Below, in pieces: positions 1,564 through 45,661 of a DNA stretch of 64,000 nt. The stretch is from contig OZ024741.1 in the NCBI GenBank assembly GCA_964016885.1, positions 42,780,001-42,844,000 on the forward strand, in the 5' to 3' direction. The position numbers and the translations under genes were made by a program. The notes under the pieces were generated by a model that did no database searches, was not told the DNA's origin, and saw only the letters and a list, made by a program, of their open reading frames with translations. Within the stretch, counting starts at the first letter, position 1, and the number at the start of each line of letters is the position of its first letter. The DNA is from Eledone cirrhosa. Lineage: Eukaryota.

Positions 1564-1680
1564 CCTGATCACCTTGACCGACCAGTCTGTCAGGCGCCAT
1601 TCGGCGCCGCTGGTCACAGCACGTGCTGTTTTAGCCATACGATGACGCCATCCCACTGGCTGGGCGGGCAGGCCGGAGAA
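1561..1680 (-). mobile_element. Unclassified GC-rich retroposon/SINE 3' fragment in (TA)n
   Basis: 120-bp GC-rich insert bounded by (TA)n on both sides; no ORF. Strand is tentative. Confidence 0.35.
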
Positions 1681-1700
1681 TATATATATATATATATATA

Positions 1701-1853
1701 TTTATTAAAATAACAGATTAAAGTTTAAGCAAAGAATCGCTGCTTTCACCCTTAACGGGATCTTCTGAAACTAACCTTAAGCAGCGATACGTTGCTTAAA
1801 CTTTAATCTGTTATTTTAATAAATATTTGCTCTACGGTTCAAATGTATTATGA

Positions 1854-1857
<4 letters not shown>
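1701..1857. mobile_element. Fold-back Penelope-like remnant in (TA)n
   Basis: Inverted arms 1701-1745 and 1779-1823, a short unpaired tail, and a hammerhead motif. Confidence 0.65.
1722..1772 (-). ncRNA. Type I hammerhead ribozyme motif with one core substitution
   Basis: agttt-CAGAAGA-tccc gttaa gggt-GAAA-gca...tgc-TT-aaact. Stems I-III can form; CUGA reads CAGA. Confidence 0.55.
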
Positions 1858-1896
<39 letters not shown>

Positions 1897-1899
<3 letters not shown>

Positions 1900-2135
1900 T
1901 TGGCACAAAACAAAGAAAAAAATCCCCAGTCACTGAAACGGTCACAGAATGTGTGACGAAAGAACTTTGACAATATATGAACAACCGTCCGGTTGTGGAA
2001 CCAACCAACCAACCAACCAACCGCAAATTTATAAATTCTTAAATTTATAAATTGAATTTATAATAAATTGGAGTGAAAGAAATTGGTGCGTGTGGTTTCC
2101 CATTGGCAACATGACCCTCCCAAAGTATAACAATA
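1897..2135 (+). mobile_element. Penelope-like pLTR remnant with degenerate hammerhead (1929-1971)
   Basis: gtca-CTGAAACG-gtcaca gaatg tgtgac-GAAAGAACTT-tgac. The GAAAGAACTTTGA motif and the 3' end ATGACCCTC..AAGTATAACAATAT are shared with the element at 46372-46898. Confidence 0.5.
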
Positions 2136-2164
2136 TATATATACATATACATATATATATATAT

Positions 2165-2380
2165 TTCTAACGATCGACTTTCGTTAAATCGGACCGTGGA
2201 AACAGTGTTTCTATTGGTCTTTCCAATTGCTAATACTATCTATCGGTCGCAACTCCAGGTAGAAGGAGAAACGTGAAATAAAGTGTCTTGCTCAAGGACA
2301 TAACGCATCGCCCGGTCCAGGAATCGAACTCTCAACCTCACGATTGTGAATCCAGTTCTCTAACCACTCAGCCATACGCC
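2165..2380 (-). mobile_element. tRNA-derived SINE (TGTCCTTGAGCAAGACACTT central domain)
   Basis: Minus strand has A-box TGGCTGAGTGG and B-box GTTCGATTCC. Related copies at 17545-17860 (+), 51235-51510 (+) and ~53280-53430 (-). Confidence 0.75.
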
Positions 2381-2496
2381 ATATATGTATATCTATATAT
2401 CTATAATTTGTAATACACGAAGCCAAATTTTACATATTTAACTTAATTATTTTATATATAATATATATATATATATTTTATATATAATATATATAT

Positions 2497-2706
<210 letters not shown>

Positions 2707-2714
2707 CGTGTGTA

Positions 2715-3014
2715 TAATGGTAGCTATGGTGCTTCCATAGGCGGTATGCCAAATTTAGCACTCAATATTCTTACAGAGCAGAGTGTAAATAGTATAAGAA
2801 AACGAAAAATCACTGATGCACCTGGACTCAGTTTATTGCGTGTTACTTTCGCCGGCATGTAGCTCGAGACTTGATCACTGTATGGATTATTGTATGGATC
2901 TAGCTGAATCAGCTAGATCCATACAGTGATCATGTCTCGAGCTACCTGCCGGCGAAACAATTGTAACACGCAATAAACTGAGTCCAGATAGCTCACTAAT
3001 TTTTCGTTTTTTTA

Positions 3015-3018
<4 letters not shown>
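2715..3018. mobile_element. Fold-back Penelope-like remnant in (TA)n
   Basis: Imperfect inverted arms centred near 2905; hammerhead 3' half GAAACAATTGTA at 2954-2965; homologous segment at 17235-17400. Confidence 0.55.
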
Positions 3019-3071
<53 letters not shown>

Positions 3072-3213
3072 TATTTATTTGTGTGTATATACATAAGAAG
3101 AAAAACAGAGAGATCGAGAGAAAGGAAGAGAAAGAGAGTGAGAAACGAAGTGAGAGAGCACATGAAAGAGAGAGAGGAAAGGACAATTAGAGAGTTAGAG
3201 AATGAGAAAGAGA

Positions 3214-3307
<94 letters not shown>

Positions 3308-3494
3308 GTGTGTGTGAGTGTGTGTGTGTGTGTGTGTGAGGATGTGAGAGAGAGAGAGAGACAAAGTATCCACTGAAGCCACGCTAATGATAGAATTAAC
3401 GAATAAGGAAATGAATGTTATTAAAACATAAATACATAAAAACAATCGGAAACGAAGATCATTACCCTAACAATAACTACAAGAACAATACTTC

Positions 3495-3960
3495 CACCAT
3501 CGCACCAGCACACTACAATTGCACCACCACACCACCATCATTACCGCTTCCACCACCATCACTACCACTTCCACCACACCACCATCATTTACCATTTCCA
3601 CCGAGTTACTACCACTGCCACACCACCATCGCTACCACTTCCACCACTGCACTACCATCACTACCACCATCGCACCACCATCCCTACCACCGCACCTCCA
3701 TCCCTACCACTTCCACCACCATCCCTACCACCGCATCTCCATCACTACCACCGCCACACCATTATCCCTACCACTGCACCACCATCATTACTACTTTCAC
3801 CACTATCACTACAACTTTCACCAATATCTCCACCACCGCACCACCATCATTACCACTTTCACTACCATCACCATCTCCACCCCACCATCACTACCATGTC
3901 CACCACCATACCCCAACCCCGCCACCAACATCAACAACAACATCAACATCAACAACAGCA
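3495..3960. repeat. Degenerate CAC/ACC-rich minisatellite
   Basis: Variants of ccaccatcactaccacttccaccactgca; produce Pro/Thr/His-rich pseudo-ORFs. Confidence 0.85.
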
Positions 3961-4659
3961 TTGCATTTCGAAATGTCGGTACACAAACTATAATTGTGTT
4001 AGGATGGTTTGGAATCGATTGAGTGTAAGTCAATCGAACGTTGGTTACAACAAAACATGTTACCAACCCCAGAATCAAGATTTCCAGATCTACTAATTAA
4101 TACTAAATTTCATGTTGCCTGCCTCACAGAAAATATAAACAGCGAATTAACTCCCAACTCATACTGCTACTAACACCGGAAAATTACCAACACTGTATAC
4201 TATCAAACACTTGGATGTTTCAGCTATTTAATTATTGTAACATCTGCATCGAGTTAGTTGGTAAATATATAGGAAGGCTCTCGATGAGGCGGATCTATTG
4301 GGGAGGTACACTCACTAGTGCACACACAGAGACAATTACACATATACACATAGACACTCACACACATACATACCCTCTTACAAACACATACACGCACACT
4401 GTTACTTGTTCACACACACGCAAACGACACACCCCCTCTTCGCATATGTTATCGCGGGTTAAACTTTACAGTGGCACTTTGAAAAGGTTACTTCTATTAT
4501 AACCTCGCTTTGCCTACTGTCTTGTGAGAGAATTTTGATAGACGCAAACTGTACAAAGACTGTGTGTGGCTTTCTCGATACAACAAGCTGCTAATTTGAC
4601 CCAATTATATCTCTCTAGCTAATGTGTAAAAGAGGACTCCACTACCACCACCAACAGCC

Positions 4660-5279
4660 GTGGAGTACATATCCCTCCCAGACGCCACAGAATCCGACAT
4701 GGAGTTTGAGGCGGGAGTGAAGTGGCAAACGGTCTGCCACAGAAAACAAAAAAGAAAAAAACCCTTAGATTCACCCTCCAAAAGCGAAGGCATACAAAGG
4801 GGGGTAAAGGCAGCAAGGAAACTTGCAGCAACACCACCACCCTCACCACCACAAGCACCACTGACAACAACAACCACACCACCACCAGCATCACCAAAAA
4901 CACCAACAACGCAAACACAACAAGACACACACACCAAGGAGCAACAAGAAGAAACAGCAACAAAATCACCCCTCCCCCCTAAAAAGTACACAGCCATAAA
5001 CATGGCAAAAAAAGAACTCATACAATATATAAAGCAACACACAGACATCACAGGAAAAAATTACTACACACCACCAACAGCAAGAACTCTCCCGACAAAA
5101 ATAAGCATCATCGAAATTTCAATAGAACAGTACAAACCTTTAAAACAAAAATTCCCCAACGCAGTTGGAGACTTCAGAGTGTCGGTTACCAAGAGGATAT
5201 ACACTGACATCCTCTTGTAAACACCCATGACCAGCGAAAGGGACGGTTCTACTGTCCCTTCACCACACGAACAAGGTAA
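4660..5279 (+). pseudogene. Tx1 ORF1 C-terminal part
   Basis: Aligns with ORF1 of the minus-strand copies (W-x-T-V..KKK, YTA.N, KFP..GDF); internal stop at 5218-5220. Confidence 0.75.
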
Positions 5280-5315
5280 GTGACCCTTTCTCACTTGTCC
5301 TGTTTCTCATCCAAC

Positions 5316-8300
5316 ATGGCCGTACTCAGAATAAGCAGTATAAATGCACGTGGCCTGGGGTCATCTTGGAAGCAGGGTAATCTGCTCAACGACCTCAGGT
5401 CACTAAACATAGATGTGGTGGCCATCAGTGAACCAGAATCTCCGAAGCACAAGCCTTCGCACCGATATTCGGCGGCTACGATGTATACGCATCTCCCAGC
5501 TGTCCAGGATCGGGAGAGGGGTTGCCGTCCTTTTTTGGAGAGGCTTGGATCTCGCGATACGGGCCATCTTCCTATACCCGGAAGATAAGTCGGTGGTGCT
5601 GGACGTGACCGGCAGCGAAGGCAATGCTTTCAGGCTAGTAGCCGTCTACGCCCCAAAAGGGGCAGGACGGCTAGATTTCTTCAGACGTCTAGAGCCCTTT
5701 CTTGGAACGTCCCGCTCTTTAGTGTTAGTGGGCGACTGGAACGGTATCTTGGATGCACGCTGGTATCGTGTGGGGCTAGTGGATAGGGGAGGAGGGTGCA
5801 AGAGCCTCACCAACCTGCTCAGACGTTTTGAACTTTCTGACAGGTATCGACTGGATCAGCCAAATGTGCCAATGTGGACATGGAAAAACCGCATCCGGTC
5901 ATCCAGATCGTATCTCGATAGGGTATTCTGCAGAGAACTAGATAAGGCTAGTATAAGTTGTCCACAATTTAAAATAGTCGACTACACAGACCATAAATTT
6001 TGTGATCTGTGAGATCGACATAAACAGACTTCATAGACAAGGGCCTGGTTACTGGAAGCTGAGCGCGTCTTTCCCGGCGCTTAAAGCCTACAGAGACCGG
6101 ATTAGCGTATTAGTTAAGCGGGCGTTGACGGGAGCGGTCGTCAACAACAGGTGGTGGTTCGCCCTGAAAAGGGCAATTAAAGTAGAGTCGATTAGGTTTA
6201 GCAAAGGAGTAGTTATAGGGGAAAATAGAGTAGAGGGAGAGCTAGTCAGAAAGCTAGAAGAGGCGTTTAGGACAGGCATCGCAACCGACGTGCTTGCGGC
6301 GAGATTGGCACTCGACCAATTCTTCAACGCAAAACACGAAGGCTGCGTTGTCAGAGCTAGAGCGCGTGCTCTGAAACACGAGGGGACAAAAGCCGTCCAA
6401 TGGGCCCGGGTGGCAGAGGCGCGACGTTGCAACAAAGCCACAATTCGGTCTTTGTCTGACCAAAACGGGTGCGTGATGCTTGAACCCTAGCGGATGTGTG
6501 AAGCTTTTCCGCAGCACTTTGCTGAACTGTTCGGGAGCGGCGGCTTCGCTGACCGGGGCATGGACTTCAGTGCATACCTCGACGGACTGCCTCGGCTCTC
6601 GACGACCGCAGCACAGTGTTGCGAAAAGCCAATAACAGCCAGTGAAATACGGGAAGCGATGGCTAACTGCACAAGGGGTAAATCGCTAGGTTTCGATGGT
6701 CTGCCCTACGAGCTTTATGCATTTATGCCAGACTTGTTCGGTGACATCTTGGCAGCCGTCTACTGCAACTGGCAGCAGAACGGGAGCATTCCCAGTTGTG
6801 TGGGCCGGGGAGCAGTGGCGCTGCTGAGAACAGACCCGAACAAGGGGGATGTTATCGATAATTTCAGGCCCATAACCCTGCTAAACGCAGTGTTCAAGAT
6901 TTTGGCCAAGGTGTTAGCAACGAGGTTGGCGCTTGTCGTCAAGGGTCTGGTGAGAGAGGCGCAGACATGCGCCATTCCGGACAGATCCATACACGACAAC
7001 CTCCACCTCATGCGATAAATCATAGAGAGGCTGGTTAAGGAACCTGGCACGGGTGGGGCCCTGGTCAGCTTGGATCAATCCAAAGCATTCGATAGGGTCG
7101 ACCTTCGGTACCTGGCGGCGGTCCTCGAGGCAGCCAGTTTCGGATCCTTTTCAGGAGCTGGATCGCAGCAATGTACAGCGACATCTGCTCAGTTGTGAGG
7201 GTGAACGGTCACCTGTCGCAGCCGTTCAGCATCATGCGCTCTGTCCGCCAGGGTTCTCCCCTCTCGTCCCTCTTGTACGTATTGGCTCTCGAGCCGTTAC
7301 TGCACAAACTGGGGGCGATGAGGGGCGTCCCACGCGAACTAGGATGCGGGAAATCCGTGTCGGCTTACGCTGACGACGTCACCGTGGTGGTGTCGAGCAC
7401 CAGACACGTCCAGATGCTCGGCACCGCTCTCAAGGAATACGAAGCGGTGACAGGAGCAATTATAAACCAGGAGCAAATATAAACCAGGAAAAGTCGGTGG
7501 GCTTGCAGCTCGGCACCTGGAGAGAAAAGTCCATGCCGTCCGACAGTGTCGTGGGGCGTTGGACGGACGGACCGGTTAAATTGCTTGGAGTCTGGTTCGG
7601 ACCGGACCTCCAGATGGAGAAAAAGTGGAACGAGGTGACGTGCAGGGTGGCCTCCCTCACCCAGAAATGGGCTGAAAGGACGGGCGGAGGTGGCGAATGC
7701 GTACATCGCATCCGTCATCTGCTACCGCTTCACCGTCGTCCCTTGCTCCAGCCCAACTCTCACCAAAATGGAGCGCCTCCTCTTCCGCTTTTTGTGGAAG
7801 GGACGCGCTCCCATGGTCAGACGATCCATCTGCTGTCAAAACCCGTTGCGTGGAGGACTGGGCATGCCATGGCTGATGATGCGCAAACATGCGCTGAGGC
7901 TGCGACATCTCTGGTGCTTACTTGATGGTGAACAGGTGTGGTCCCCGTTCGCCAGGCACGTTTTCCCACAGCACATCTCCTTGACGGAGCTGCAGTCCTG
8001 GGTCAGAAAAAGACCGAGGGATAGCGCTTGGAAACTGGAATATCTCCAGGCGCTCACTGCCCTCTGCCAGCTGGGCATCAGTATCGGTTGAACATCCACC
8101 TCGGCGTTCTATAGAGGACTAGTGGAGGGGAAGAGCGACGACATTCTCGGAGGGATCCTGGGCGTCGAAGAAGATCAGCTGTTTTCTCTCTTCCGGAGAA
8201 CTTTCAGCCCGGGGCCTATGGATACATCCCTGGCCTGGCAGTGCTACCGGGGAGCGCTGCCGGTTCGAGATAAGCTCTACAGGTTTTTCAAGTTTCACTT

Positions 8301-8463
8301 GAAGAGGAAAATCATGGTGGAGAGGCAAGTGCTGCCTTCTAGCAAGTTTGTTGAAATGTGGGTGAATGTAGCGAGAATGGTCCGAGTGAACGGGACCGCT
8401 CTGTATATACGTCTGAATATACGTCTGAATATATGTCTGAATATACTCTGAATATACGTCTGA
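5316..8463 (+). pseudogene. Tx1 ORF2 (AP endonuclease + reverse transcriptase), disrupted
   Basis: SINARGL, VYAP, GDWN, YLDR, TDH (APE); FRPITLLN, KAFDRV, RQGSPLS, YADDV (RT); several frameshifts and stops; zinc-finger region deleted near 8283. Confidence 0.92.
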
Positions 8464-8820
8464 GAAATGGAAACATTGAGAGAGGGCGCTTGCCCTGGTG
8501 GTCAGGGTGGCCGTGGTCTTCTGTGTGGTTTTCGTCACGAGTAACCCTCGGAGGTTTTCCCCCTGTTGGGGAATTTTTCATTGTTTCAATTTTCATTTTT
8601 ATTGTTTATATATATGTTTATATGTCCTTTTTTTTCTTTTCTTATATAAATAATAAAAAAATATTTACACGCACAAAACCCACATCGTACCGTCCTGTAC
8701 CGTCCTGTGCCGTCTGTAATGTTTTTCTTGATGTCAGCCCTTGTGGCCAATAAAGAAATCATTATTATGATACCACCCTAATAATAATAATAGTAAAGAA
8801 ATAATAATAATTATCATTAG

Positions 8821-9045
8821 GGCGGTGGATTGGCAGTATCGGTAGAACGTCGATTTGCGGCATGGAGTTACGGTCCTTTATGATCCGTGTTCAAATCCTG
8901 TCAAGGTTAGCTTTGCCTTTCTTCCTTACGGGGTCGATAAAATAAAGTACCAGTAATGCACTGAGGTCGATTTGATCGACTTTTCCCTCCCTCCAAAATT
9001 GTTGGCCTTGTGCCTCAATCAGAAATCATTACTATTATTATTATT
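8821..9045 (+). mobile_element. tRNA-derived SINE with Nin/Deu-like domain
   Basis: B-box GTTCAAATCC; GCCTTTC.TCCTTACGGGGTCGATAAAATAAAGTACCAG core; 3' CCTTGTG-N8-AGAAATC then (ATT)n. Confidence 0.8.
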
Positions 9046-10640: not shown

Positions 10641-11392
10641 ATTATGCCCGCAAGTGTAGCTAAAATACGTTGTCCAGCCATTTTGTTTTTATTTTTTATT
10701 TGTCTTACATTTAATTGTGTTTCAGGAGTACCAAATATAAATTTTGCAATTTCATCAGAATTATTAATACCAGCTTAAATTTCCTTCACTTTTATCTAAA
10801 AATTCCAATTTCAATTCATGAAAGCATCTCAATTTTATTAATCTGAAATTGTAAACTAAAGAAAACAAATTTAAAAAAATGGAAACATAAAATCGGTCAG
10901 CGCAATATGCATCATATGCATCATTGGCAAATCGAACATCGATATTAAAAACCCCGTCATTAAAATTTATCAAACACCTAAATTTCGTTTGGCATCCATA
11001 AATATTGACGTTTCTTAACGATATTTGAACTATGAACCACAGCATAATACAATTCCTTACGCTAAGTTAGCATCATGTAAACAGGTCACCTGACGCGAGA
11101 GTAAGCAGGTTCAATGAAAAAAAATATATATATGATGAAATACAATAAGAAAATCAAAGTAAAAACGGACTCAAAACTCCCCAATTTAAGACCGAGTTCA
11201 TATAACGTTATGAAGAAAAGATCTGAGTATTTGACAGATATGGGGAAAAATATTATCTATGATCATTGATAAATTCATTATTATTGTTTTGGTAATGTTG
11301 TTGTTGGTATTGTAGTTGTTGTCACTATTATATCTATACACATATATACGTATATATGTGCCAAATGTGTTTCACACATCAATAAATATAAT

Positions 11393-11578
11393 TGTTTCTA
11401 CTTTTTGGCACACGGCCAGCAATTACCCAGTACATTACTAGTACTTTATTTTATCGACCCCGCAAGGATGAAAGGCAAAGTTAACCTCGGCGGGTTTTGA
11501 ACTCAGATCATAAAGGGACATAACTATGCCAGAAAACATGGCGTCTGACCCTCTACCGATACTGCCAATTCACCACCC
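11393..11578 (-). mobile_element. Nin-like SINE
   Basis: Same core as 8821-9045; flanked by direct repeat AAATATAAT. Confidence 0.8.
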
Positions 11579-11671
11579 AAATATAATGAAGATCTCGCAC
11601 CTCGTCCTATTTATTATATATACATACAAATATATATACATATATATATATATATATGTGTGTGGGTGTGT

Positions 11672-25740: not shown

Positions 25741-25769
25741 AATGACATGTGCCCACAAAAAAAATCCAC

Positions 25770-26578
25770 GGTTACCATGACGGCTAGGGCAAGCGCGCTC
25801 TTTCAGTTTTCCACGGACGATGCTACAGGCACACGCTCAGAGTAGGCCCATTTACACAGGCCATTCTTGCCTCTCTCACTCACCTTTCAACAAACTGGCT
25901 GGACGGCACCACTTTCCTCTCCAACATGATTTTCCTTTTCATGTGAAACCTGAAAAAGTCAATGAGGGCTACCCCCGAAGAGGAAAGTGCCAGTCTTCAA
26001 ACCTTTCAGACGCATCCACCATACGATCTCTTCTACCATGTCCACCAGGAATATAAAAACTGCCTGCACCTCCTGTTTAAAGGAGGGCGGCGGGATAATC
26101 TTCACGATGAACCCAGCTGATAGCCGGATCCGTCCTACACGCAACAGCAGATGTTTGACATAAACCCACAAGTCAGCGATGCTCGGACACTGGACGTGCA
26201 GGACGGTTTCGAATCCCCTGCGCGCATCTTGGACATGCCCGGCTGACGGCACTTCCATGCCTGTAGAGCTTATCCCGAACTGGCAATGCTCCTCCGCAGC
26301 ACTGCCAGGCCAGGGATTTCTAGAAGTTGCCCATCGGCCCCGGTCCGAAAGTTCTCCCGAAGAGATTGGCTAGTTGATTTTCGTCGAGGCTCAATGTCTC
26401 CCCAAGGACGTCGTCATAATCCCCCCTCCCCCTCACACACACTAACCCGCCAGAGAACGCCAAGGTGGAGTTTTCATCGATCGCATTGCCCGATGGTTGA
26501 CGACTGTAAGCGCCTGAAAACATTCGTGTCTCTAAGCGCTCTCTCTCGGTCTTCGCTTGACCCAGGACTGCAGCTACG
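25770..26578 (-). mobile_element. Tx1 LINE 3' fragment (ORF2 C-terminus)
   Basis: Homologous to 27417-28150 (ETVLH..QCPSIADLW). Confidence 0.88.
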
Positions 26579-26591
26579 TTTAGGAAAAATA

Positions 26592-26645: not shown

Positions 26646-27074
26646 GAAAACGATCAAGTGAAGGTGCTCTGGGATTTCAGGATACAGACAGACCAGAAAT
26701 TAGAACACAATAGGCCTGACCTGGTGGTTTTTGACAAGGAAAAAAGATCGTGCCTGATTGTAGATGTAACCTGCCACTTTGACACAAGAGTGCTAGAAAA
26801 GAAGGAGAAAATTAACCGATACCAAGATTTAAATTCGGAGTTAAAAAGGATTTGGAACTGTCATAAGATCAATGTCTTTCCGATTGTTATAGGAGCACAA
26901 GGATAGCTAAAGAACATTAGTCCATCCCCCTTTTTTGGAACACGTCAAAAGGCATGCTTACTTGGAACAGCAAGAACCATCTGATAAGCCCTGAATATCT
27001 GAGGCTGCAGGTAGCGGCTTGATATTCATTTGAACAAACTTTTCAGTTAAATAACATCAGTGACTGAGACGCCA
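26646..27074 (+). mobile_element. R4/Dong-clade 3' fragment (RLE domain and 3' UTR), family A
   Basis: WDFRIQTD..HNRPDLVV.D..DV..D..EK..RYQDL..PIVIGA; lies between (AAT)n and (TAC)n(TAA)n. Confidence 0.88.
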
Positions 27075-27075: not shown

Positions 27076-27173
<98 letters not shown>

Positions 27174-27416
27174 TTTTCTTAATTAATTACAAGGGTTTAC
27201 ATAAAGTAGACATTAAGGACAGTACAGGACAATACAGGACGGTACAAATGGGCATTTCTGCATGTAAAAAAAACAGAGGATGTAATAAAATAACAAAGAA
27301 AGATTCCCCAATAGGGAGGAGACTTCCGAGGGACATTTGTGGAGAAAGCCCATTAAAAGACCACAGTGACCCTGACCACCAGGGCAAGTGCCCTCTCCCA
27401 GTTTTCTACCTTTAAA

Positions 27417-30400
27417 TTACAGACACTTACTCAGAGTAGGCCCATTCACTCGGGCCATACTTGCCTCTCTCACCCATCTTTCAACAAAATGCTGGGAAGA
27501 GAGCACTTCCCTCTCTATCCTGATTTTCTTTTTCAAATGAAATTTGAAAAAGTTAATCAGGGCATCACCGGAGAGGTAAGTGCTCGTCTTCAGCCCTTTC
27601 AAACGTGTCCACCATACTATCTCTTTCGCCATGGCCACCAGACAGATAAAAACTGCCTGCTTTTCCCGGCTAAAGGAAGAGGGCGGGGCAATCCTTACGA
27701 TGGACTCAGCTGTTAGCTGGATCCGTCCTACACGCGACAGCATATGTTCGACATAAACCCACAAGTCAGCAATGCTCGGACACTGGACGAGTGCGTGCAG
27801 GACGGTTTCGTGGCCCTGCGCGCATCTCGGACATGCCCGGCTGACGGCACCTCCATGCCTGTAGAGTTTATCCCGAACTGGCAAAGCTCCCCGGTAGCAC
27901 TGCTAGGCCAGGGATTTCTGGAAGTTGTCCATAGGCCCCGGCCCGAAAGTTCTTCCGAAGAGATTGGCTAGTTGATATTCGTCGACGCCTAGAGTTTCTC
28001 CAAGTACGTCGTCGCTCTTCCCCTCCACTAATCCTCTATAGTACGCCAAGGTGAAATTTCCACCGATTACATTGCCCGATTAGTCAAGGGCTGTGAGTGC
28101 CTAAAAACATTCCAGTCTCCAAGCGCTCCCTCTCGGTCTTCGATTGACCCAGGACTGCAGCTCCGTCAAGGAGACGAGCTGGGGAAAGACGTGTCTAGCA
28201 AACGGCGACCACACCTGATCACCGTCGAGGAAGAGCTGGAGATTCGTAGCCTGAGCGCGTGTCTGCGCATCATCAGCCACGGCATGCCCCGCCCTCCACG
28301 TAGCGGGTGTTGACAACAGATGGACCGCCTGACTATCGGAGCGCGTCCCTTCCACAAAAAGCGAAAGAGCAAACGCTCCAGTGCAGTCAGGCGGGGATTA
28401 GGTCAAGGTACGACGGTCAGGCGGTAGTAGATGACGGACGCGATGTACGTGTTAGCCACCTCCGCTCGACCTTTCAGGGATAGCTTCCTCTCCGCCCATT
28501 TCTGGGTGAGAGAAGCCACCCTGCTCGTCACCTCGTCCCAGTTTTTGTCCGTCTGGAGGTGCAGACCGAACCAGGCCCCTAGCGATTTAACCGGTCCGTC
28601 CGTCCAGCGCTCGACGATGCTGTTGGACGGCATGGACCTGCCTCTCCAGGTGCCAAGCTGCAGGCCTACTGACTTTTCCTGGTTGATCATTGCTCCTGTC
28701 ACCGCTTCGTATTCTCTTAGTGTAGTGCCGATCGCCTCGATGTGTTTGGCGTTCGACACCACTACGGTGACATCGTCCGCATATGCTGACACGGATCTTC
28801 CGCATCCTAGTTCGCGCGGGATCCCCCTCAATGTATCCAGTTTGTGCAGTAATGGCTCGAGAGTCAATACGTACAATAGGGACGAGAGGGGACATCCTTG
28901 GCGGACCGAGCGCATGATGTTGAACGGTTCCGAAAGGTGACCGTTCATTCTCACCACAGAGCAGATGTCGCTGTGCATGGCAGCGATCCAGCCTCTGAAT
29001 ACGAGCCCAAAGCCAGCCGCCCTCAGGACTGCCGCTAGGTAACGATGGTCGACCCTATCGAATGCTTTCGACTGATCTAAATTTATCAAAGACCCACCCG
29101 TGCCAGGTTCCCTAGCTACCCTCTCTACGATGTATCGCATGAGGTGGAGGTTGTCGTGGATGGATCTGTCGGGAATGGCGCATGTCTGTGCCTCTCCCAC
29201 CAGACCACCAACGACAAGCGCCAACCTCTTTGCTAGCACCTTGGCCAAAATCTTGAACTCTGTGTTTAGCAGAGTTATGGGCCTAAGGTTATGTATGTTA
29301 TCCTCCTTGTCCGGATCCTTTCTCAGCAGCGCCACCGCTCATCGGCTCACAGAGCTGGGAATTATCCCGTTCTGTTGCCAGTTGCAGTAGACGTCCGCCA
29401 AGTGGCCTCCGTACAAGTCTGGCATTTGCACGTAAAGTTCATAGGGCAGAACATCTAAACCAGGCGATTTACCCCTTGTGCAGCCAGTCATTGTCTCCCG
29501 TACTTCAGCGGCTGTTATCGGCTTTTCGCAACACTCCGCCTCAGTGGCCGAGAGGGGCGGCAGTCCGTCGAGGTAGCCACTAAAGTTCATCCCTCGATCC
29601 GGCCCATCGCTGTCCCCGAACAGTTGAGCGAAGTGTCGCTGAAAAGCTTCACACATTTGCCCGGGATCGAGTAGCATGCGCCCGTCGTGGTCCACCAAAG
29701 ACCGGATCGTGGCTTTGTTGCCACGACGCGCCTCCGCCACTCGGGCCCATTGAACGTCTTTCGTCCCCTCGTGTCCGAGAGCACGCACCCTAGCTCTGAC
29801 AACGCAGCCTTCGTGCTTTGCATTGAAGAATTGGTCAAGGGCCAATTTCACCGCAAGTACGTCGGTCACGATGCCTTTGCAAAGCGCCTCGTCTAATTTT
29901 CTAACTAATTGTCCCTCTGCTCTATTTTTTCTCTAATCCTAAAGCCTTACTAAACCTAATGGACTCTATTCTAATTGCTCTTTTCAGAGCAAACCACCAC
30001 TTGTTGTTGACGATGACCCCCGTCAACGCCCGCTCAACTAGTTCGCTAATCCGGTCTCTGTAGGCCTTGCGCGCTGGTAAGGACGCGTTTAGCTTCCAGT
30101 AGCCGGGTCCTCGTCTATGAAGCCTATCTAAGTCAAGCACACAGATCACAAATTTGTGGTCCATGTAGCTGACTATCTTGAATTGTGGACAGCCTATGCT
30201 AGACCTATCTATTTCCCTACAAAATACTCTATCTAGATATGATCTGGATGACCCTATGCCATTTGTCCAAGTCTACATTGGTACATTAGGGAAATCCAAT
30301 CGGTACCTGTCAGACAGTTCAAAACGCCTGGTGAAACTCTTGCACCCTCGTCCCCTATCCCACACAGTCCCAGCGTGCATCTAAGATCCCGTTCCAGTCG

Positions 30401-30590
30401 CCCACTAACACTAAAGGGCGGGACGTTCTAAGAAAGGTATCCAGACGCCGGAAGAAATCAAGCCGCCCTGCTCCTGTCGGGGCATAGCCGGCCAATAACC
30501 TGAAAGCTTGCCCGTCTCCGCTGGTCACGTCCAGCACCACCAACTTACTTTCCCACGCGCATTTATGCTGCCTATTCTGAGTGAGGTCAT
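27417..30590 (-). pseudogene. Tx1 ORF2 (APE-RT-zinc finger), disrupted
   Basis: RPITLLN, DQSKAFDRV, RQGCPLS, YADDV, CPRC..ETVLH...C. Confidence 0.93.
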
Positions 30591-30624
30591 GTTGAAAAGG
30601 AGTGGAAAAGATGGGAAAGACCAC

Positions 30625-32569
30625 TTACCTTACTTCTCGTAGGGGAAGGACGGTTTTTCCATCCTTTTCACTGCTTGTGGCCTCCTCAGAAAGGTTGTCC
30701 TTATAAATCCTCCTGGAGAGTGCTTGTCGGAAGTCTCCGATGTCTTTGGGGAATTTTTGTTTTAGTGTCATGTACGTTTTCTGTGTGATGCGAGTGATTT
30801 GTATGTGTGGAGGTGGTGTGAATTTTTAGGTTGTTGGGTAGTCCTTTTCTGTGATGCTGGTGTTGTGTTGGATGTAGTGTAATAATTGGTTGTTGTTCAA
30901 ATTTAATGCTGTATAGTGTGTACGTTATGGTTGTTTTGTTTTGTTTGCGTTTGTTGTGGGTTTGTTTCTGTTTCGCATTTTGGTGACTTTTGTGGTGTAG
31001 GTGATGGTGGTGTTGGGGTTAATGATGGTGATGGTGTTGGTCTTTGGGTTGATGGGGTTGGTGATGCTGGTGTGGATGGTGGCATATCTGTCCTAACTTT
31101 TTTGTTTCTTAATTTATTTGTTTCCCTCTGTATTTTGTTTTTGGAGGTGGAAGTAAGAGAATTTTTTCTTTTTTGGTTTCTTTTTTTCTTTTTTCCTGAT
31201 ACCGTTTCCCACTCCTCGTCGCCACAATCTGCCTCCATTTGTGATAGGCCGGGGAGTGGAAAATCCTCCACAGGCGTTAGTTTTGCTTGTGGCGTGGTGG
31301 ATGGTGTAGGCGCTGGTGCTAGTTCTGAAGCGTTGGGTGGTGGTGGTGTTGGTTTTGCTGGTGGTGGTGGTGTTGGTTTTGCTACTGTTGCTGGGGTTGT
31401 TATATATTGCTTCTGTTGTTGCTGCTACAGTTGTTGCTGCCATCCCTGCTACTGGTGGTGTTTATTGTTGAGTCACTGGGGCGGGTAGGAGAGGTGGCCT
31501 CAACCTTTTAGCCTGAGGGTAGAAAGCCCTTAGGTGGGTTCCTTCCCCACAAATGACACACCTAGGTCTTCTGCCCTCGACAATTATCGTGAGGTGGCTG
31601 CCGTCAGTGAGGTCTATTACCTCTGGGATCTCCTCAATGCTTTTTTGGTCCGCTTGGATCAGGAGGTCCATCCCAGTTCCGGACCAGTTCTCCTGCTTTT
31701 CTTTTGATATTGCTATTATCTTGGTGTTGGCTTCGATGCCGGCGAGAACGGCCACTATTAGCCAGGGAATTTCGATGGCCGGTGGAACGTGGGTCACCCT
31801 GATCTTCACGAGTCTCTGGCCACAATAGCTTGGGACGAGTGTGAAGTCGTCACTTCTTAATGGGGCCATGGAGTGTTCTCTAGCCTCCTCTGGTGTTTCA
31901 AAGAACACGTCCACGGTTCCATACTTCTGCCCACGTCTGATGTGGGTTTTTCTTGCCCACACATGTCCCAAAGCTTTTTGGATTTGGGACTCGGATGCCC
32001 GTTCCACTCGGCGCGATTTTACATTAATTGGTCGATACGACACGGTGCATAGGCGCCGATGCTCCATTTTATTAGGTGTGTGTGACATTTTCTAATTCCT
32101 CCTGAGTTATCGTAAATGTTTCGCACTGTTTTGCTACTCTGGCAAAACTCAGGGTGATTTTTTTAATGTCATTGTTTATGTTGTTGTTATCGTTATTTTT
32201 GTTATTATTAATTTTACTTTCAGTTGTGGTGGTGGTGACGTCAGTGGTGTTCGGTGTGGAAGAGTCCATTTTGGTTGAAAACATTTCGACATCACGAGTT
32301 GATTTATTTTTTCCTTTTGTTTCTGTTGTCGCGGTCGTGGTGGGGGTGGTGGTTGACGCGGTGGTGGTGGTGGTGGTGGTGGCGGCTTTAACACCTGCAG
32401 TCATTGGTAATGGCGGGAAATGAATGTCTGCCTGAGACAAATTTAAAATATTGCTACTGATTAAATTTTTAGTGTTGGCAACCGTAGTAATATTTACAAT
32501 GGTGGTGTCGGTGTGAGGTGTTAGTTTATGAGGAAGGCTGTCAGCTTCGTGTGGCTGTGAGACTTCCAT
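30625..32569 (-). pseudogene. Tx1 ORF1, disrupted
   Basis: LSFARVAK motif, putative RRM-like region, zinc knuckle CVICGEGTHLRAFY; frameshifts. Confidence 0.85.
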
Positions 32570-32779
32570 GTTTTTTTTCAAAGAAATTTTTTGATAATTA
32601 TAAATGTTTAAATTTTGGGCACAAGGCCCCAATCTTTTTGGGTGTCCTTTTCGGAAAACAATGTATGTGCGCTTATAAACAGTTAACAACAAAATTTTCC
32701 ATAAATGGCAATTTTTAACAAACGGAAATAACAAACCTTTGCGAAGCTCACGATGATACGATTTACTACGTAGGTCGCC

Positions 32780-32844: not shown

Positions 32845-34290
32845 GGAGGAACCACCCGAAGCAGACAATGATCTGAATGCTGAAATAAATAATTGTTTTT
32901 AGTTTTGGCACAAGGCCAGCAATTATTCCAGTATATTATTGGTACTTTATTTTATCGACCCCGTAATAAATAATACCTGGAACAAAGATACGGCCATTGA
33001 GGAGATGAATGCTGACGGGCTATGACAAGATTTGGTTGATATCCTAAACTTAGCGGTAGATGAATTGAACAATGATAGTGGGAAACCTATGAACCTAAGA
33101 TTTGTAGACAGGAAAAAGTTAAAAGAAACAACAGCTAAGGTAAACAAAGTCATCCCATACCTTGAGGCGAGGAGCCTTCACCAGTGCAACAATATCCTCA
33201 AAGCAACAGCAAATGAGGTGAGGAAATTACATAGCATAAAAGCGAGAGGAAACAACAAGCAAGAAAGATCAGAACCTTGTGGGAAGAAACGACTGAATGG
33301 TCAAATCAGGGAAATGAGAAATGACATTGGAAATCTTGAGTCCCTACTGAATGGGACACTAAAAAACATAGACACTAAAAATAGACTGGAAATAAAGTAC
33401 AACACTAGGAGTAAAAAGCTAAATATTATCATTGAGCAACTGAAGCAACGCATTGTAGCAAAGAGTGCACAAATTAGGCGATACGAGAGCAGAGTCAGTC
33501 AGTATAGACAGAACCGCATGTTTGACAACAACCAGAAGATGCTGTTTGGACAGTTTGAAGGGAAAGAAAGAGGCAACGACTTGATCCCTGAGGCGGAGCA
33601 AACTAAGACATTCTGGAGAGGAATATGGGAGCAGGATGTTAAACATAATGACCAAGCAGTGTGGATTGAGACAGTACAAAAGGAGATTAGTGAACAGGCA
33701 CACCAACAGACTGATTTGAGTATCACAGTTGAAACTCTTAAGGGGCAGGCCAAAAAGCTCACCAACTGGAAATCACCAGGCCCAGATGGTGTGCAGGGGT
33801 ATTAGATTAAAAATATAACATCCCTCCACTCGAAACTGACAACCATGTTCAATGACTGCTTGATGTCAGGTGAGGTACCAGAGTGGTTGACAAAAGGTAC
33901 CACAGTTCTGGTAATGAAAGACCGAATCAAGGGTAATGATGTTACCAACTATAGACCTATCACATGTCTGTCCGTCATGTGGAAACTGTTGACAAGCATT
34001 ATGTCTGAGGAAATCTACCATCACCTCCAAATAAACAACTTGTTACCGGACGAACAGAAAGGATGCCGAAAGAAGTCCCGTGGTACAAAGGACCAGTTAC
34101 TTATTGATAAGATGGTAATGAGGAATTACAAGAGGAGACACACTGGTCTTGCCATGGGATGGATAGACTACAAAAAGGCATTTGACAAGGTGTCTTATTC
34201 TTGGATCACCAAAAGCCTGGAGATCTTCAAGGTGGCAGATAACATCAGACAGTTGTTGGGAAAAAGTATGAAGTCCTGGAAAACAGAGTC
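32844..34290 (+). mobile_element. R4/Dong-clade element, family A, pre-RT and N-terminal RT part
   Basis: KSPGPDGVQGY, PEWL.KG.T, NYRPITCL, EQKGC, DQLLID, WIDYKKAFD; starts after (AAT)n. Confidence 0.88.
32894..32964 (-). mobile_element. 5'-truncated Nin-like SINE nested in Dong
   Basis: 10-bp TSD AATAAATAAT at 32884-32893 and 32965-32974. Confidence 0.8.
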
Positions 34291-36706
34291 AAGGGAAGAT
34301 AATAAAGAAGTCCTTGAGGCTTTCTACACTGCCATGTACTACCCATCAAATACATCCAATACAGAACAGACATATATCAACTGGAAAAAGAAACATCCCG
34401 AAAACAGAGGCTATATTGACAGCAACAAACTAGACAATATACGAAGAAATATTGTAAAAAAAAAGTTACTAACTGATATAGAAATTGATCAGATCAAGCT
34501 ATTAGCACAAAGTCAGCGAAGGGAAAATGAAACATGTGTCAGTGAAAACGAGGTAAATTGTAACACTTCGAATCCCAGGGTTGGGGCGGAATCACTGGCA
34601 ACAGAACAAATTAAAGAAAGGATCGAAAAAGTGGAGGGAGTGCATGCTCAGGATGAAACTCCAAATGAAAATAACGAGATCGTAAATGATAAAGAAATGA
34701 ATGAGAATGAACTTGCCACCTTGAAGGATGAAATTATGATCGAATGGATGAAAATGAAAGAATCTGACATGGGGCAACGAGACACCCTCCCTAAGATCCA
34801 GAAATCCAAACAGAACCAAAATATAATACACAAGACTAACATAATTCTCAAAAACATTATCATCACAAACAAACTAAACATAACTGATTTAAATCATCTC
34901 TATTATGCATCGGCTAAAGTCACCACTCACTTATGTGGAGTGAAGATGAAAAAACAAAGGAATTCCCACAAGAAATCTACTTGGCAAGAGAACATCAATC
35001 GCCAAATAAACCTTCTCCGATCTGACATATAAATTTTAACAAACTATAAAGTAGGTGAACATGTTAAACAAACTAAACTTAGAAAATTGAAAAAAAAGTA
35101 CAGTATAAAATCAACAAGTGACATAGACATGCTGATAGAAATAATCAAACAAAAAGTGTCGGCCAAAGCTGCTCGTATAAGGCGCTTTGAAAAACGATCT
35201 AGATTCTATAGGGACAATAATATGTTCAAAACCAACCAAAGAAACTTCTACAGAAAAATTGGTAAGTCAACAATAACTGCTAAATCAATACCACCCAAGG
35301 AGGAAGTGCAAGAATTGTGGGAAAAGATCTGGGCCGAAGAAAAAGTTCATAACATACATGCCCCATGGATAGACAGACAAATGAAAGATACAGCTCACCT
35401 TGAGGAACAAATATGGGAAAATATAACAGTTGAACAGTTGCGCTTGGCTCTAAGAAAAACCAGCAAATGGAAATCCCCAGGAAAAGACAAAATAAAAAAC
35501 TTTTGGATAAATGCCTTCACAGAATCTCATGAGCTGTTAGCCCAACTTTACAATGAAATAGTTAAGGAGCCAGAAAAGATACCATCATGGCTAGTTAACG
35601 GCATTACATTCCTGCTTCCGAAGAATGATGAGACAAACAATCCCAAAAATTACAGACCGATAACTTGCTTGACCACAATGTATAAAATTTTAACATCAGT
35701 CCTAACTGAATACACATATGACCACCTAATAACAAATGACCTATTTCCCATTGAGCAGAAAGGGTGTAAACGAGGCTCATATGGCTGTAAGGATCAGCTT
35801 CTGGTTAACAAAATGATACTGGAAGATTGTCATAATAGACACAAAAATATATCGATTGCTTGGATAGATTATAAAAAAGCATTCGATAATTTGCCACACA
35901 GTTGGATTGAAAAATGTTTAGAGATTTTCAAAATATCCCCCGTTGTCAGGAGGCTTTTGTCATTCAGTATGAAGACATGGAAAATGACACTCCTTTTGAA
36001 TAGTGAAACAAAATCACTGGAAGCTGGAGAAGTTAATATTAATTGTTGAATTTTTCAGGGTGACTCTTTATCACCGCTTTTATTCTGCATCGCACTTATA
36101 CCATTAAGTAAAATGCTCAATGAAACAAAACATGGATATAAAGTCTATGACAAAACCATTAATCACTTGTTCTACATGGATGACCTGAAACTATTTGCAA
36201 AAAATGATGAACAATTGCAAGGGCTATTATCCACTGTGGAGCAGTTCAGTGATCATCTCAATCTTGTGGAACTTTAGCATCCAAACAGACCGAAAAATAG
36301 ATGCAAATAGACCTGATATAATATTGAAGGACTTTAAAAACATTTGAAAAATTGAGCAAGTATAAGGACCTGGAGATAGAAATTGGAAAAATGTGGAAAT
36401 TGAGAACTAAAACAATACCAGTGGTTGTAGGCGCTCTGGGAATGATACCTAGGGGGTCTAATGATTACTTATCGCAAATCCCAGGAAACTCGCGTATAGG
36501 AGAAATACAAAAGATAGTACTAATGGGAACTGCCCATATACTAAGGAAGATTCTGTCAATATAAGTACATCACAAGTCTAAACACTAAAGATGCATGTGT
36601 GAGTATTATGTTCTTTCTTGTACATGGCGGACCTTGTTGTCTCTTGAGGTCACTGGTTGTGACTTGGTGATAACTCGTATGAACATAAAGCAAGATAAAT
36701 GCAACT

Positions 36707-36708
<2 letters not shown>
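34291..36708 (+). mobile_element. R4/Dong-clade element, family B, degenerate
   Basis: N-terminal domain; RT (NYRPITCL, IDYKKAFD, QGDSLSP, YMDD); deletion near 36253; RLE (NRPDII, KYKDL, PVVVGALG); different 3' UTR; (TAA)n tail. Confidence 0.9.
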
Positions 36709-36761
<53 letters not shown>

Positions 36762-36763
<2 letters not shown>

Positions 36764-37400
36764 TGGAGAGAGAGAGGAGACTGTGGCTCACATTGTGTCC
36801 GAGTGTAAACACCTAGCCCAGACCCACTATAAGGGCTGGAGACACGATGTGATGGGCAGGGTGATCCACTGGCACCTGTGCAAAGTAAACAATCTACCAC
36901 ATTCTGAGAAATGGTATGAGCATAGGCCAGAGGCGGTGATGGAGAACAGTCAGGTGAAGGTGCTGTGGGATTTTAGGATACAGACGGACAAAAAACTGGA
37001 ACATAATAGACCTGACCTGGTGGTTGTGGACAAAGAAAAAAGATCGTGCCTGATTGTGGATGTGGCCTGCCCGTTCGACACGAGAGTGCAAGAGAAGGAG
37101 AGGGAGAAAATTAACCGATACCAGGACCTAAAGTGGGAGGTGAAAAGGATTTGGAACTGCCATGAAGTCAAAGTGATCCCGATTGTCATAGGCGCACTGG
37201 GGACTATCTCCAAAGGTTTCCAGGGATGGTTAAAGAAAATCGGCCCCTTCACGCTTTTTGGAACGCTTCAAAAGGCATGCTTGCTTAGAACAGCAAGAAC
37301 CCTCCGTTACGTCCTGAATATCTGAGGCTGCAGGTAGTGGCTTGATATTCAATCCAACGGACTTTCCAGTTAACCAACATCAATGACTGAGATTCAAGGA
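36762..37400 (+). mobile_element. R4/Dong family A 3' fragment (zinc motif + RLE)
   Basis: CGEREETVAHIVSEC, RHD, RPDLVV, DVACPFD, EKINRYQDL; (AAT)n on both sides. Confidence 0.92.
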
Positions 37401-37426
37401 ATAACAATAACAATAATAATAATAAT

Positions 37427-38783
37427 GGGATGGATAGACTACAAAAAGGCATTTGACGTGGTGCCTCATTCTTGGATCACCAAAATCCTGGAGATCTTCA
37501 AGGTGGCAGATAACATCAGACAGTTGTTGGGGTAAAGTATGAAGTCCTGGGAAACAGAGTTAACATCAACTGGAGAATCCTTGGGAAGCATGAGGATCAA
37601 GAGAGGTATCTTCCTGGTAGATAGTCTGTCCCCTCTGTTGTTTGTCCTTGCCCTGATGCCCCTGACCAGTGTACTGCGGAAAGTGAGAGCAGGATACAGG
37701 TTGGGAAAGGGAGGGCTTGCCATCAATCACCTCCTCTTCATGGACGATCTAAAGCTCTTCGGGAAGAGTGAGAAGGAGTTGGATGTGCTTGTTGACACTG
37801 TCCGTATTTTCAGCAATGATATATGTATGCAATTTGGTATTAGTAAGTGTGGAGTAATTGTGATTAGGAGGGGTAAGTTGAGCAGAAGTAACGGAATCCA
37901 GATACCAACAGGTGGAATGATAAAGTAAATTGACTCTGAGGAAGGATACAAGTATTTGGGCGTTCTGGAGGCTGACGACATCAAAAACAAAAAAATGTAG
38001 GAATTGATAAGAACTGAATACCTTCGGAGAGTAAGGAGCGTATTAAAATCACATCTGAACAGTAGGAATGCCATAAGTGCAGTAAATTCCCGAGCTGTGT
38101 CTATTATTAGGTACAGTGCGGGAATTCTGAGATGGAATGTTGCTGAACAAAAAGAAATGGATAGGAAGACTGGGAAGCTATTGACTATCTACAATATGTT
38201 TCACAAGAGGAGTGATGTCGATAGACTCTACTTAAGGAGATCTGAAGGTGGAAGAGGTCTTATCAGCATAGAGGACTGTGTTCAGATGGAGAAAAACAAC
38301 CTATACAAATACGTGACTGATAGTAAGGAGCCAATGCTCAGAACTGTACTGAAGGAGGGGACAATTGGCCAGGGGATGTCCAAGGAGGAAATAACATCAA
38401 GGAGAAAGAGCAGCCTTCAGGAAAAATCCCTTCATAGTACCTTCTTTGAGAAAACTGAATTTAGAGATCCACAGACATGGAACTGGTTGAAAAGAGGAGA
38501 CCCCAGGACTTAAAGTGGGAGGTAAAAAGGATTTGGAACTGCCATGAAGTCAAAGTGATCTCGATTGTCATAGGCGCACTAGGGACTATCTCCAAAAGTT
38601 TCCAGGGATGGTTAAAGAAAATTGGCCCCTTCACGCTTTTTGGAACGCTTCAAAAGGCATGCTTGCTGGGAACAGCAAGAACCCTCCGTTACGTCCTGAA
38701 TATCTGAGGCTGCAGGTAGTGGCTTGATATTCATTTCAACAAACTTTCCAGTTAACTAACATCAATGACTGAGACTCAAAGAG
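37427..38783 (+). mobile_element. R4/Dong family A 5'-truncated copy (RT C-half + RLE end)
   Basis: DSLSPLLF, HLLFMDD, YKYLG, RLYL.R.EGGRGL; deletion near 38503; (TAA)n tail. Confidence 0.9.
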
Positions 38784-38790: not shown

Positions 38791-38836
<46 letters not shown>

Positions 38837-39070
38837 TTTTCTTTATTAACCACAAGGGTTTACATAAAGTAGACATTAAGGACAGTACAGGACAATACAG
38901 GACGGTACAGATCGGCATTTCTGCGTGTAAAAAAAACAGAGGATGAAATAAAATAACAAAGAAAAATTCCCCAATAGGGGGGAGACTTCCGAGCGACATT
39001 TGTGGAGAAAGCCCATTAAAAGACCACAGTGGCCCTGACCACCAGGGCAAGTGCCCTCTCCCAGTTTTCC

Positions 39071-42000: not shown

Positions 42001-42409
42001 CTAAAGAGCGGGACGTTCCAAGAAAGGTCTCCAGACGCCGGAAGAAATCAGGCCGCTCTGCTCCTGTCGGGGCATAGACGGCCACTAACCTGAAAGCTTG
42101 CCCGTCTCCGCTGGTCACGTCCAGCACCACCACCTTACCTTCCGGGTCCAGGAAGATGGCCCGTATGGCAAGATCCAAACGTCTCCGAAAAAGCACAGCA
42201 ACTCCTCCCCCCAATCCCGGACGGCTGGGAGATGCGTACACATCGTAGCCGCCGAAGATCGGTGCGAAAGCCTGTGCTTCGGAGATTCTGGTCTCGCTGA
42301 TGGCCACTACATCTATGTTTAGTGACCTGAGGTCGTTGAGCAGGTGGCCCTGCTTCCATGACGACCCCAAGCCACGCGCATTTATGCTGCCTATTCTGAG
42401 TGAGGTCAT
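39071..42409 (-). pseudogene. Tx1 ORF2 (APE-RT-zinc finger), disrupted
   Basis: SINARGL, ISET, YLDR, TDH, KAFDRV, RQGCPLS, YADDV, CPRC. The 3' coordinate is approximate. Confidence 0.93.
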
Positions 42410-42443
42410 GTTGAAAAGGAGTGGAAAAGATGGGAAAGACCAC

Positions 42444-44438: not shown

Positions 44439-44648
44439 TTTTTTTCAAAGAAATTTTTTAATAATCATAAAAGTTTAAAATTTTGGGCACAAGGCCCCAA
44501 TCTTTTTGGGTGTACTTTTCGGAAAACAATGTATGTGCGCTTATATATGGTTAACAATAAAAAATTTCCATAAATGGCAATTTTTAACAAACGAAAATAA
44601 CAAACCTTTGCGGAGCTCACTATGATACGATTTACTACGTAGGTCGCC

Positions 44649-44688: not shown

Positions 44689-45413
44689 GGAAGAAGCAAA
44701 AGAAGCAGAAGAATATAGTTTTCAGTTCTCTATGTAATCATTTAAAATGTCTAATGTTCTCCCATTTTTCCTCGATTTTATATAGTCTTCTTTTCCTTCT
44801 ACTTTGCCTATCATTACTCTGCACTCAAATTTTATGTAATAATTGATTGTAACTACTTCAAATTGTATGCTTTGCTGGAAGCTAGTACGTTTTTTTTACA
44901 ATATATTTCATTCTCACTGTCAAACTAAATTCGTATTACATTTATGTAAGTAAAGAATTAGTAGATCGATGACAATCTGTATTTCTATTAAATAAGAAGT
45001 GTGAAATATTGAATGTCAATTTTTCTGGTAAATGTGGTTTGGTAATTCTTCTAGAAATTGAGATTCATTGAACCATGTGGAAATAAGGTCACGAGATTTG
45101 GAAAATGTCTTGTTAGAGAACGCTTTTAATGAGCAGAAATAAATGTATCATGCAACGTTTATAAGTATATTTGTATATTTTCCAGCTGAGGTTAATAGAC
45201 ATCACATAATAATTGTTTTCCTAGAAACATCCTGTTTAATAGAAGCGAAATGTAAATGGTGTATCAATCAGCCTGAATATTTGACGTATCATTCACTCAA
45301 ACAGACCCTCCAGTGCGACTCATGCTACGTAGTTCTCTTAATTAATCTCTTTATTTTTAATGACGTTACAACGCTGTAACCGGCTCGTTACAGATTACAC
45401 AAGTTAAAATAAT

Positions 45414-45626: not shown

Positions 45627-45661
45627 TACACAAGTTAAAATAATAGAATATAAACAAGTAT

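Follow-up and report, generated by a model that had tools for sequence, protein, structure and literature searches.

The window analysed in this study is a 64 kb stretch of contig C2 from a genome of 3.0 Gb; it is rich in LINEs, in repeats of (TA)n and ATT, and in copies of a single SINE family. A first-pass annotation had proposed that this SINE is mobilized by a Tx1 LINE with which it shares a 3′ motif and an ATT target. The elements concerned are as follows.

4630–8760, plus strand: decayed family A LINE (L1 group, Tx1 type), aligning to 1664–5634 of a full-length family A copy
8737–8747, plus strand: predicted 3′ hairpin of this LINE (GCC, CTTGT loop, GGC)
8749–8768, plus strand: tail of this LINE, with AATAAA, GAAA and a short ATT
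8820–9030, plus strand: focal SINE, long subtype, with head, central domain and tail
8831–8842 and 8889–8898, plus strand: A-box-like and B-box-like sequences of the focal SINE, with the central domain at ~8904–8953
9004–9014, plus strand: predicted 3′ hairpin of the focal SINE (GGC, CTTGT loop, GCC)
9022–9025, plus strand: GAAA of the focal SINE tail, with ATT starting at 9028
11377–11582, minus strand: short-subtype SINE with a 9 bp TSD and a mutated loop
22603–22741, minus strand: 5′-truncated short-subtype SINE with a TSD
25753–26587, minus strand: 3′ fragment of a family A LINE
27173–32779, minus strand: full-length family B LINE with (ATT)n on both flanks and a mutated 3′ stem
32884–32966, minus strand: 5′-truncated SINE with a 10 bp TSD
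38836–44648, minus strand: full-length family B LINE with (ATT)n on both flanks and the 3′ hairpin AACC/CTTGT/GGTT
44485–44497, minus strand: second CTTGT hairpin (GGGC/GCCC), in the 5′ UTR of the family B LINE, with the stem polarity of the SINE
45408–45628, minus strand: long-subtype SINE with a TSD of at least 16 bp
53449–53642, minus strand: short-subtype SINE
54187–54828, minus strand: three SINEs head to tail (54187–54382, 54388–54615 and 54622–54828)

The focal SINE lies about 55 nt beyond the end of the family A LINE, outside its tail, and is without a clean TSD. The family B LINE at 38836–44648 (minus strand) interrupts a Dong-like LINE, lying antisense within its (AAT)n tail. Pieces of Dong/R4-like LINEs at 33026–38775 and 26646–27069 (plus strand) terminate in (AAT)n, and Tx1-type copies lying antisense in such tails recur across many retrieved loci. 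The 3′ end of an RTE-like LINE is located at 62790–63434 (plus strand), followed by (CA)n/(TA)n. The names CR1, Dong-like and RTE-like are assigned from motifs recognized by eye, together with RT matches.

The SINE is short, non-coding, dispersed, flanked by TSDs and present in high copy number, as is characteristic of a SINE2. Among 96 full-length copies, the A-box-like pattern was present in 70 and the B-box-like pattern in 75; neither Rfam (nothing above the gathering score) nor ARAGORN returned a tRNA match for the head, and the central domain is putatively Nin-like. Two subtypes can be distinguished, exemplified by 54187–54382 (short) and 8820–9030 (long), of which the short one is commoner and lacks ~25 nt upstream of the tail, including a small inverted repeat. 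In contigs of two other organisms, weak and fragmented evidence covered 29 of 29 bins of the SINE at 54185–54385, with no differences in the tail hairpin among those listed. The LINE hairpin lay outside the contigs obtained from four sequencing runs.

The shared 3′ end

All four of the Tx1 and SINE 3′ ends quoted in the first-pass annotation were found in the window sequence, in which the pattern CCTTGTG-N6–10-AGAAA occurs seven times against an expectation of 0.04 (0/100 shuffles reached seven). The two blocks and an 8 nt spacer had been described as the same in both kinds of element; the spacer is indeed 8 nt long in all seven window matches, whereas its sequence differs, with AATAAA occurring, among the window matches and the families, in the LINE spacer only. 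In family D LINEs the spacer is 9 nt, and the motif itself is mutated in the SINEs at 11393 and 32894.

The CCTTGTG block is most readily interpreted as a hairpin loop together with its closing pair. What the elements have in common is a predicted stem-loop with a CTTGT loop and a stem of 3–4 bp, followed by GAAA and ATT, in which the stem letters differ: GCC/GGC in LINE A, AACC/GGTT in LINE B, GGCC/GGCC in LINE D and TGGC/GCCA in the SINE. Across 14 ends, which were hand-picked representatives and form mutually related rows, 87.5% of the cells are paired, double changes occur at three of the four pairs, and the covariation score is 0.368, compared with 0.128 when shuffled (0/500) and at most 0.099 when slid. 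The double changes amount to about four events, just one of which separates the SINE from the LINEs; furthermore, the outer stem pair is broken in 7 of the 14 rows, and RNAalifold predicted the inner three pairs unaided. A lower stem appearing in folds of the LINE ends (TTTCTT/AAGAAA in A and CTTTAT/ATAAAG in B) is not claimed here, because the consensus fold retains just three pairs.

In primary sequence the likeness between the SINE and the ATT-LINE ends extends over ~20–25 nt, which is below that of bivalve-type pairs (35–61 bp at 72–95%; PMC11481361), and the invariant match is ~12 nt. Local alignment of the short SINE tail gave z values of 2.5, 0.7 and 1.9 against the 3′ ends of the ATT-targeting families A, B and D, respectively; those for the LINE ends of the TATC families were higher, at 2.1–4.2. 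The best alignment of all was to the hairpin in the 5′ UTR of LINE B (z = 6.9 for the short and 4.4 for the long SINE), which lies ~150 nt into the element and is exact in 22 of 33 family B 5′ ends, with variants in most of the others. A LINE 3′ end combining the stem polarity of the SINE with AATAAA was found in no family; the combination has nine genome-wide matches, of which the four identified loci are SINEs. Related palindromic hairpins were also observed at three loci ~130–190 nt from the start of the 5′ UTRs of families B, B2 and D, that of family D being a 12 bp perfect inverted repeat.

Genome-wide, SINE-type ends have 206,845 exact matches and ATT-LINE-type ends 14,139, with 0 for the control in both cases; these counts are lower bounds because the patterns require exact matches. 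The pattern CTTGT-N10–14-GAAA-NN-(ATT)5 has 25,095 matches, compared with one for its reversed control, and upstream of its first 30 loci lay the SINE in 13 and the hairpin-bearing LINE lineage in 15 (28 of 30 together), with two loci unassigned. The conservation of the motif that the first-pass annotation called for holds throughout the genome in both groups. Ends of the (TATC)n sister lineage number at least 9,136, and TATC follows 22 SINE ends. Several Tx1-type sister families with (TATC)n were seen, at 35 retrieved loci.

Insertion at ATT and the identity of the LINE lineage

The four SINE TSDs reported earlier were verified on the SINE strand: ATTATATTT for the SINE at 11393, ATTATT(C/T)ATTCTTTAT, with one mismatch, for that at 22613, ATTATTTATT for that at 32894 and, for that at 45414, a TSD of at least 16 bp that begins ATTATTTTAAC. 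A pattern demanding ATT behind the tail yielded 152 SINEs whose 3′ ends are intact; 61 of them have a TSD of at least 10 bp, compared with a mean of 10.3 and a maximum of 16 in flank-swapped controls. The TSDs are mostly 10–19 bp long, and 36 of the 46 that are not pure ATT begin with ATTA.

An ATT run of at least 6 nt lies within 25 nt upstream of 90 of these 152 SINEs, and of 19 of 32 in unselected DNA. Such a run precedes all 24 full-length LINEs, each of which has an ATT repeat of at least 12 nt at its 5′ junction, and 23 of 50 truncated LINEs, being absent from the other 27; this count leaves aside 33 of 108 ends whose 5′ flank lies inside a LINE, together with a single duplicate. Since background windows contain the run in 77 of 3000 cases, the truncated LINEs indicate that ATT is a target and not merely a tail. 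Runs of the opposite polarity were found at 9 of 152 SINEs and 3 of 50 truncated LINEs, and the earlier statement that SINE and LINE both insert at ATT in the same polarity is borne out. The median run is 6 nt at SINE sites, compared with 39.5 nt at the junctions of full-length LINEs. Several truncated LINEs likewise occupy short ATT sites, located within the tails of SINEs, CR1 elements or LINEs, and for this reason the long arrays before full-length LINEs may be partly element-derived. In RTE elements the beginning of the TSD is correlated with the repeat at the RNA 3′ end (PMC6007223), so that a common ATT is not proof of a common endonuclease. At six retrieved loci, an unclassified repeat ending in three ATT units beside (TA)n has received insertions of the SINE as well as of the LINE.

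A natural LINE copy has a frame of 1151 amino acids with the Pfam domains Exo_endo_phos (APE), RVT_1 and zf-RVT, and the closest solved structure to its ORF2 is human L1 ORF2p (187 bits, compared with 77 for R2). ORF1 of families A, B and D contains the CCHC knuckle CX2CX4HX4C, and the ORF1 frame of family B matched no Pfam family; a CCHC-type (type I) ORF1, rather than Transposase_22, is consistent with Tx1 in non-mammalian animals (PMC5203782). In a protein search of the genome, ORF2 was free of stops in 39 of 40 among the matches listed, and 28 of 30 retrieved ORF2 matches belong to family D. In a midpoint-rooted RT tree every sampled hairpin-bearing family falls into one clade (100/100), set apart from the RTE, CR1 and Dong-like rows; it comprises A + B and D, the latter with a TATC group nested beside it, from which ATT is likely to be the older target of the lineage. 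The protein searches returned no named Tx1 sequence, and the clade name is drawn from architecture and targeting. The preference for a target sequence by which the Tx1 clade is recognized is seen here for ATT, and the Tx1 label fits what is an L1-group element. Rfam gave nothing above the gathering score for four LINE loci and no ribozyme family at their 5′ ends.

In addition, near-identical LINE bodies were observed at five loci with several unrelated 5′ ends, as in 5′-UTR/ORF1 swapping; families B and B2 have their 3′ 3.7 kb in common at 93% and differ upstream. Head-to-tail LINE arrays with a spacing of ~6 kb occur on contig C1 at 11.27–11.30 Mb and 27.11–27.13 Mb.

Divergence from the majority sequence is 3.0–9.7% in 37 of 38 short SINE copies (21.7% in the remaining one), 0.9–11.1% in LINE B (n = 18) and 0–7.4% in LINE A (n = 8), with the caveats that mixing of subfamilies inflates the SINE values and that the compared stretches are unequal in length. 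Selected young SINEs diverge by 0.6–4.1% (n = 26), and long SINEs by 9.0–18.5% (n = 11), so that the long subtype looks older than the sampled LINE families. The comparison of ages suggested in the first-pass annotation thus came out in favour of the pairing for the short subtype, which overlaps LINE A and LINE B in these small samples.

The carrier of the SINE

Because the SINE ends in the same predicted hairpin as the LINEs and occupies the same ATT sites, it likely uses the copying enzyme of the LINE. Mobilization of this SINE, whose copies exceed 200,000, by the ATT-targeting Tx1-type LINE lineage appears likely; mobilization through the 3′ hairpin is also likely, with somewhat less assurance. 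In the proposed mechanism, RNA polymerase III would transcribe the SINE from its A/B-box-like head, and ORF2p would grip the CUUGU stem-loop of the LINE or SINE RNA, by analogy with L2 elements, for which binding of the 3′ stem-loop by ORF2 has been demonstrated (PMC4176376). The enzyme would then nick ATT-like sites, and the AUU behind GAAA would prime reverse transcription, a target-primed step the outcome of which is visible in the insertions and which would yield the TSDs of ~10–19 bp beginning with ATTA. Each insertion creates a fresh ATT site, and SINEs and LINEs consequently stack in each other's tails; both are also found, in antisense orientation, where Dong-like LINEs end in (AAT)n.

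The same lineage could instead mobilize the SINE in a relaxed manner, via the AUU tail alone, the hairpin having another job, such as LINE 3′-end processing or RNA stability, or being a relic in the SINE. Consistent with this, the hairpin stands directly 5′ of AATAAA in every LINE family, similar hairpins occur in the 5′ UTR of B and, as relatives, in those of B2 and D, the (TATC)n sister families keep the stem with variable loop positions 2–3, and mammalian L1 is itself relaxed (PMC3747384); the ATT tail by itself could bias priming. However, the SINE has no AATAAA and still retains the stem, the loop and the distance to GAAA. Its variants concentrate in the spacer (A/T 84/63 at +8; 19–21 alternatives at +10 and +12), within which its subfamilies also differ, whereas the 3′ stem letters vary in 1–5 of 148 copies, and relaxed mobilization is regarded as unlikely.

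Three groups of LINEs were considered as carriers and set aside. A CR1-like family with an (ATT)n tail has another hairpin, and of its 18 truncated copies (30 loci, less three without orientation and nine at the locus edge) one has a TSD of at least 10 bp and three have an ATT run. Dong-like LINEs, which are frequent landing sites, have a (TAA)n tail of the opposite polarity and no hairpin match, and the two RTE-like LINEs have ends followed by (TA)n or (GT)n and no match to the SINE tail. With regard to a better match in another clade, five families were compared (one CR1, two Dong-like and two RTE-like), and their 3′ ends aligned with the SINE tail no better than shuffles (z = −0.7 to 0.7) in a rival sample of 1.8 Mb that was partly selected and enriched for the focal families.

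A carrier from beyond that sample, namely an unsampled or extinct CR1, L2, RTE or Nimb element with an ATT tail, would make the common motif a product of convergence or of one template switch. The shortness of the invariant match, the (ATT)n end of the CR1 family and the enrichment of the sample all leave room for such an element, and other SINEs have been paired with such clades, those of bivalves with CR1-Zenon, CR1, L2 and Nimb (PMC11481361) and the Nin-DC SINEs of Nematostella with L2 and CR1 (PMC3747384, Table 1). However, the CR1, Dong-like and RTE-like ends sampled here resemble the SINE tail at chance level, the CR1 copies are without long TSDs, and the tails of the other two have the wrong polarity or repeat; such a carrier is considered quite unlikely. 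A separate matter is the origin of the SINE tail, which might derive from the 5′-UTR hairpin of a B-like LINE, or B might have captured the SINE tail. This hairpin is the top primary match, has the same stem polarity and is widely kept among B 5′ ends; however, the 5′ copy has no GAAA at the conserved distance, the 5′ UTRs of B2, D and A give z values of −0.6 to 2.3 against the SINE, and one compensatory swap turns the TGCC/GGCA of the TATC families into the TGGC/GCCA of the SINE. An origin of this kind is doubtful, and it is compatible with mobilization by the Tx1-type lineage, the enzyme of which may be used by mimicry of the 5′ copy.

Taken jointly, mobilization by the Tx1-type lineage through the hairpin leads to a more tentative picture, which may or may not hold in all its parts: an animal Tx1/L1-group lineage would have stringent, L2-style recognition of a minimal CUUGU stem-loop, the handle would have remained fixed while the (ATT)n target gave way to (TATC)n, and a SINE that ranks among the most abundant of octopods would ride on the lineage by a stem-swapped mimic, each copy seeding new landing sites. 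In this picture the presence of the same handle in the LINE 5′ UTR would suggest that full-length RNA is recognized at both ends.

Comparison with known systems

A pairing of a SINE with a Tx1 element by target has a precedent in the SINEU of crocodilians, which was assigned to Tx1-Mar by target and overlapping ages (Kojima, 2015; PMC4494074), and the present SINE is likewise linked to a Tx1-clade LINE by target preference and age overlap. In both systems the SINEs are looser than the target suggests, with 13–90% of SINEU in target. However, SINEU has snRNA heads, poly(A) tails and a Mariner target, and the available text of that paper describes it as having no 3′ similarity to LINEs, whereas the SINE described here has a Pol III-type head, a covarying predicted 3′ hairpin in common with its LINEs and an ATT target. 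Kibi (TC)n, Koshi (TTC)n and the crocodilian (TTCC)n/(TTTC)n Tx1 elements are likewise microsatellite-targeting L1-group LINEs of animals; the units here are instead (ATT)n and (TATC)n, in an octopod, and the same text gives a partner SINE for none of those elements (PMC4494074).

In having a putatively tRNA-type head and a short conserved body, the SINE is similar to Nin-DC, Deu and Inv and to the OR1 and OR2 CORE-SINEs of octopus, also a mollusc (PMC4824008, PMC4758252, PMC5804259). The partners given for Nin-DC SINEs in the available text are L2 and CR1, in contrast to the ATT-targeting Tx1-type LINE here. In O. vulgaris, Dong-R4, CR1, RTE and L1-Tx1 families have been recently active (PMC13282606, Table 1). 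A literature search, with Repbase and Dfam outside its scope, found no octopus SINE–Tx1 tail pairing in the available text of the papers covered (including PMC3531059, PMC5786205 and PMC10294476), and the SINE/LINE table of Ohshima, as available, gives L1-clade tail pairs in plants and an alga only, with Tx1 absent (PMC3747384). What appears to be new is thus a Tx1-type partner for a tail-sharing animal SINE, the pairing of a SINE with Tx1 by target alone being known from SINEU.

If true, the pairing would tell which LINE carries a SINE that exceeds 200,000 copies, within a group whose SINEs are mostly unclassified; in O. vulgaris this applies to 893 of the 900 SINE families with recent activity (PMC13282606, Table 1). 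The pairing would also bear on the question raised by Ohshima of whether the L1 group was ancestrally stringent, for which animal 3′ structures are needed (PMC3747384). With a tiny hairpin, many intact ORF2 copies and sister families of another target as a control, the pairing is cheaply testable.

The hairpin itself has counterparts in two groups of pairs. ZmSINE2/ZmSINE3 with LINE1-1_ZM (maize and sorghum) and SINEX-3 with L1-1_CR (Chlamydomonas) have an L1-clade 3′ hairpin in which, as here, the loop is conserved and the stem shows compensatory changes; they differ in belonging to plants and algae, in a homology of ~50–80 nt and, in the available text, in being without microsatellite targeting (PMC3747384), compared with an animal lineage, ~25 nt and a stem of 3–4 bp in the present case. 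The stringent L2 pairs ZfL2-1/ZfL2-2 (PMC4176376) and UnaL2/UnaSINE (PMC1636434) have a stem-loop before a short tandem-repeat tail, with a conserved loop and a variable stem, and are again similar; however, they are of the L2 clade and are backed by binding and retrotransposition assays, whereas the present pair is proposed from sequence evidence. In its working, it appears to resemble a stringent SINE–LINE pair with an unusually short homology.
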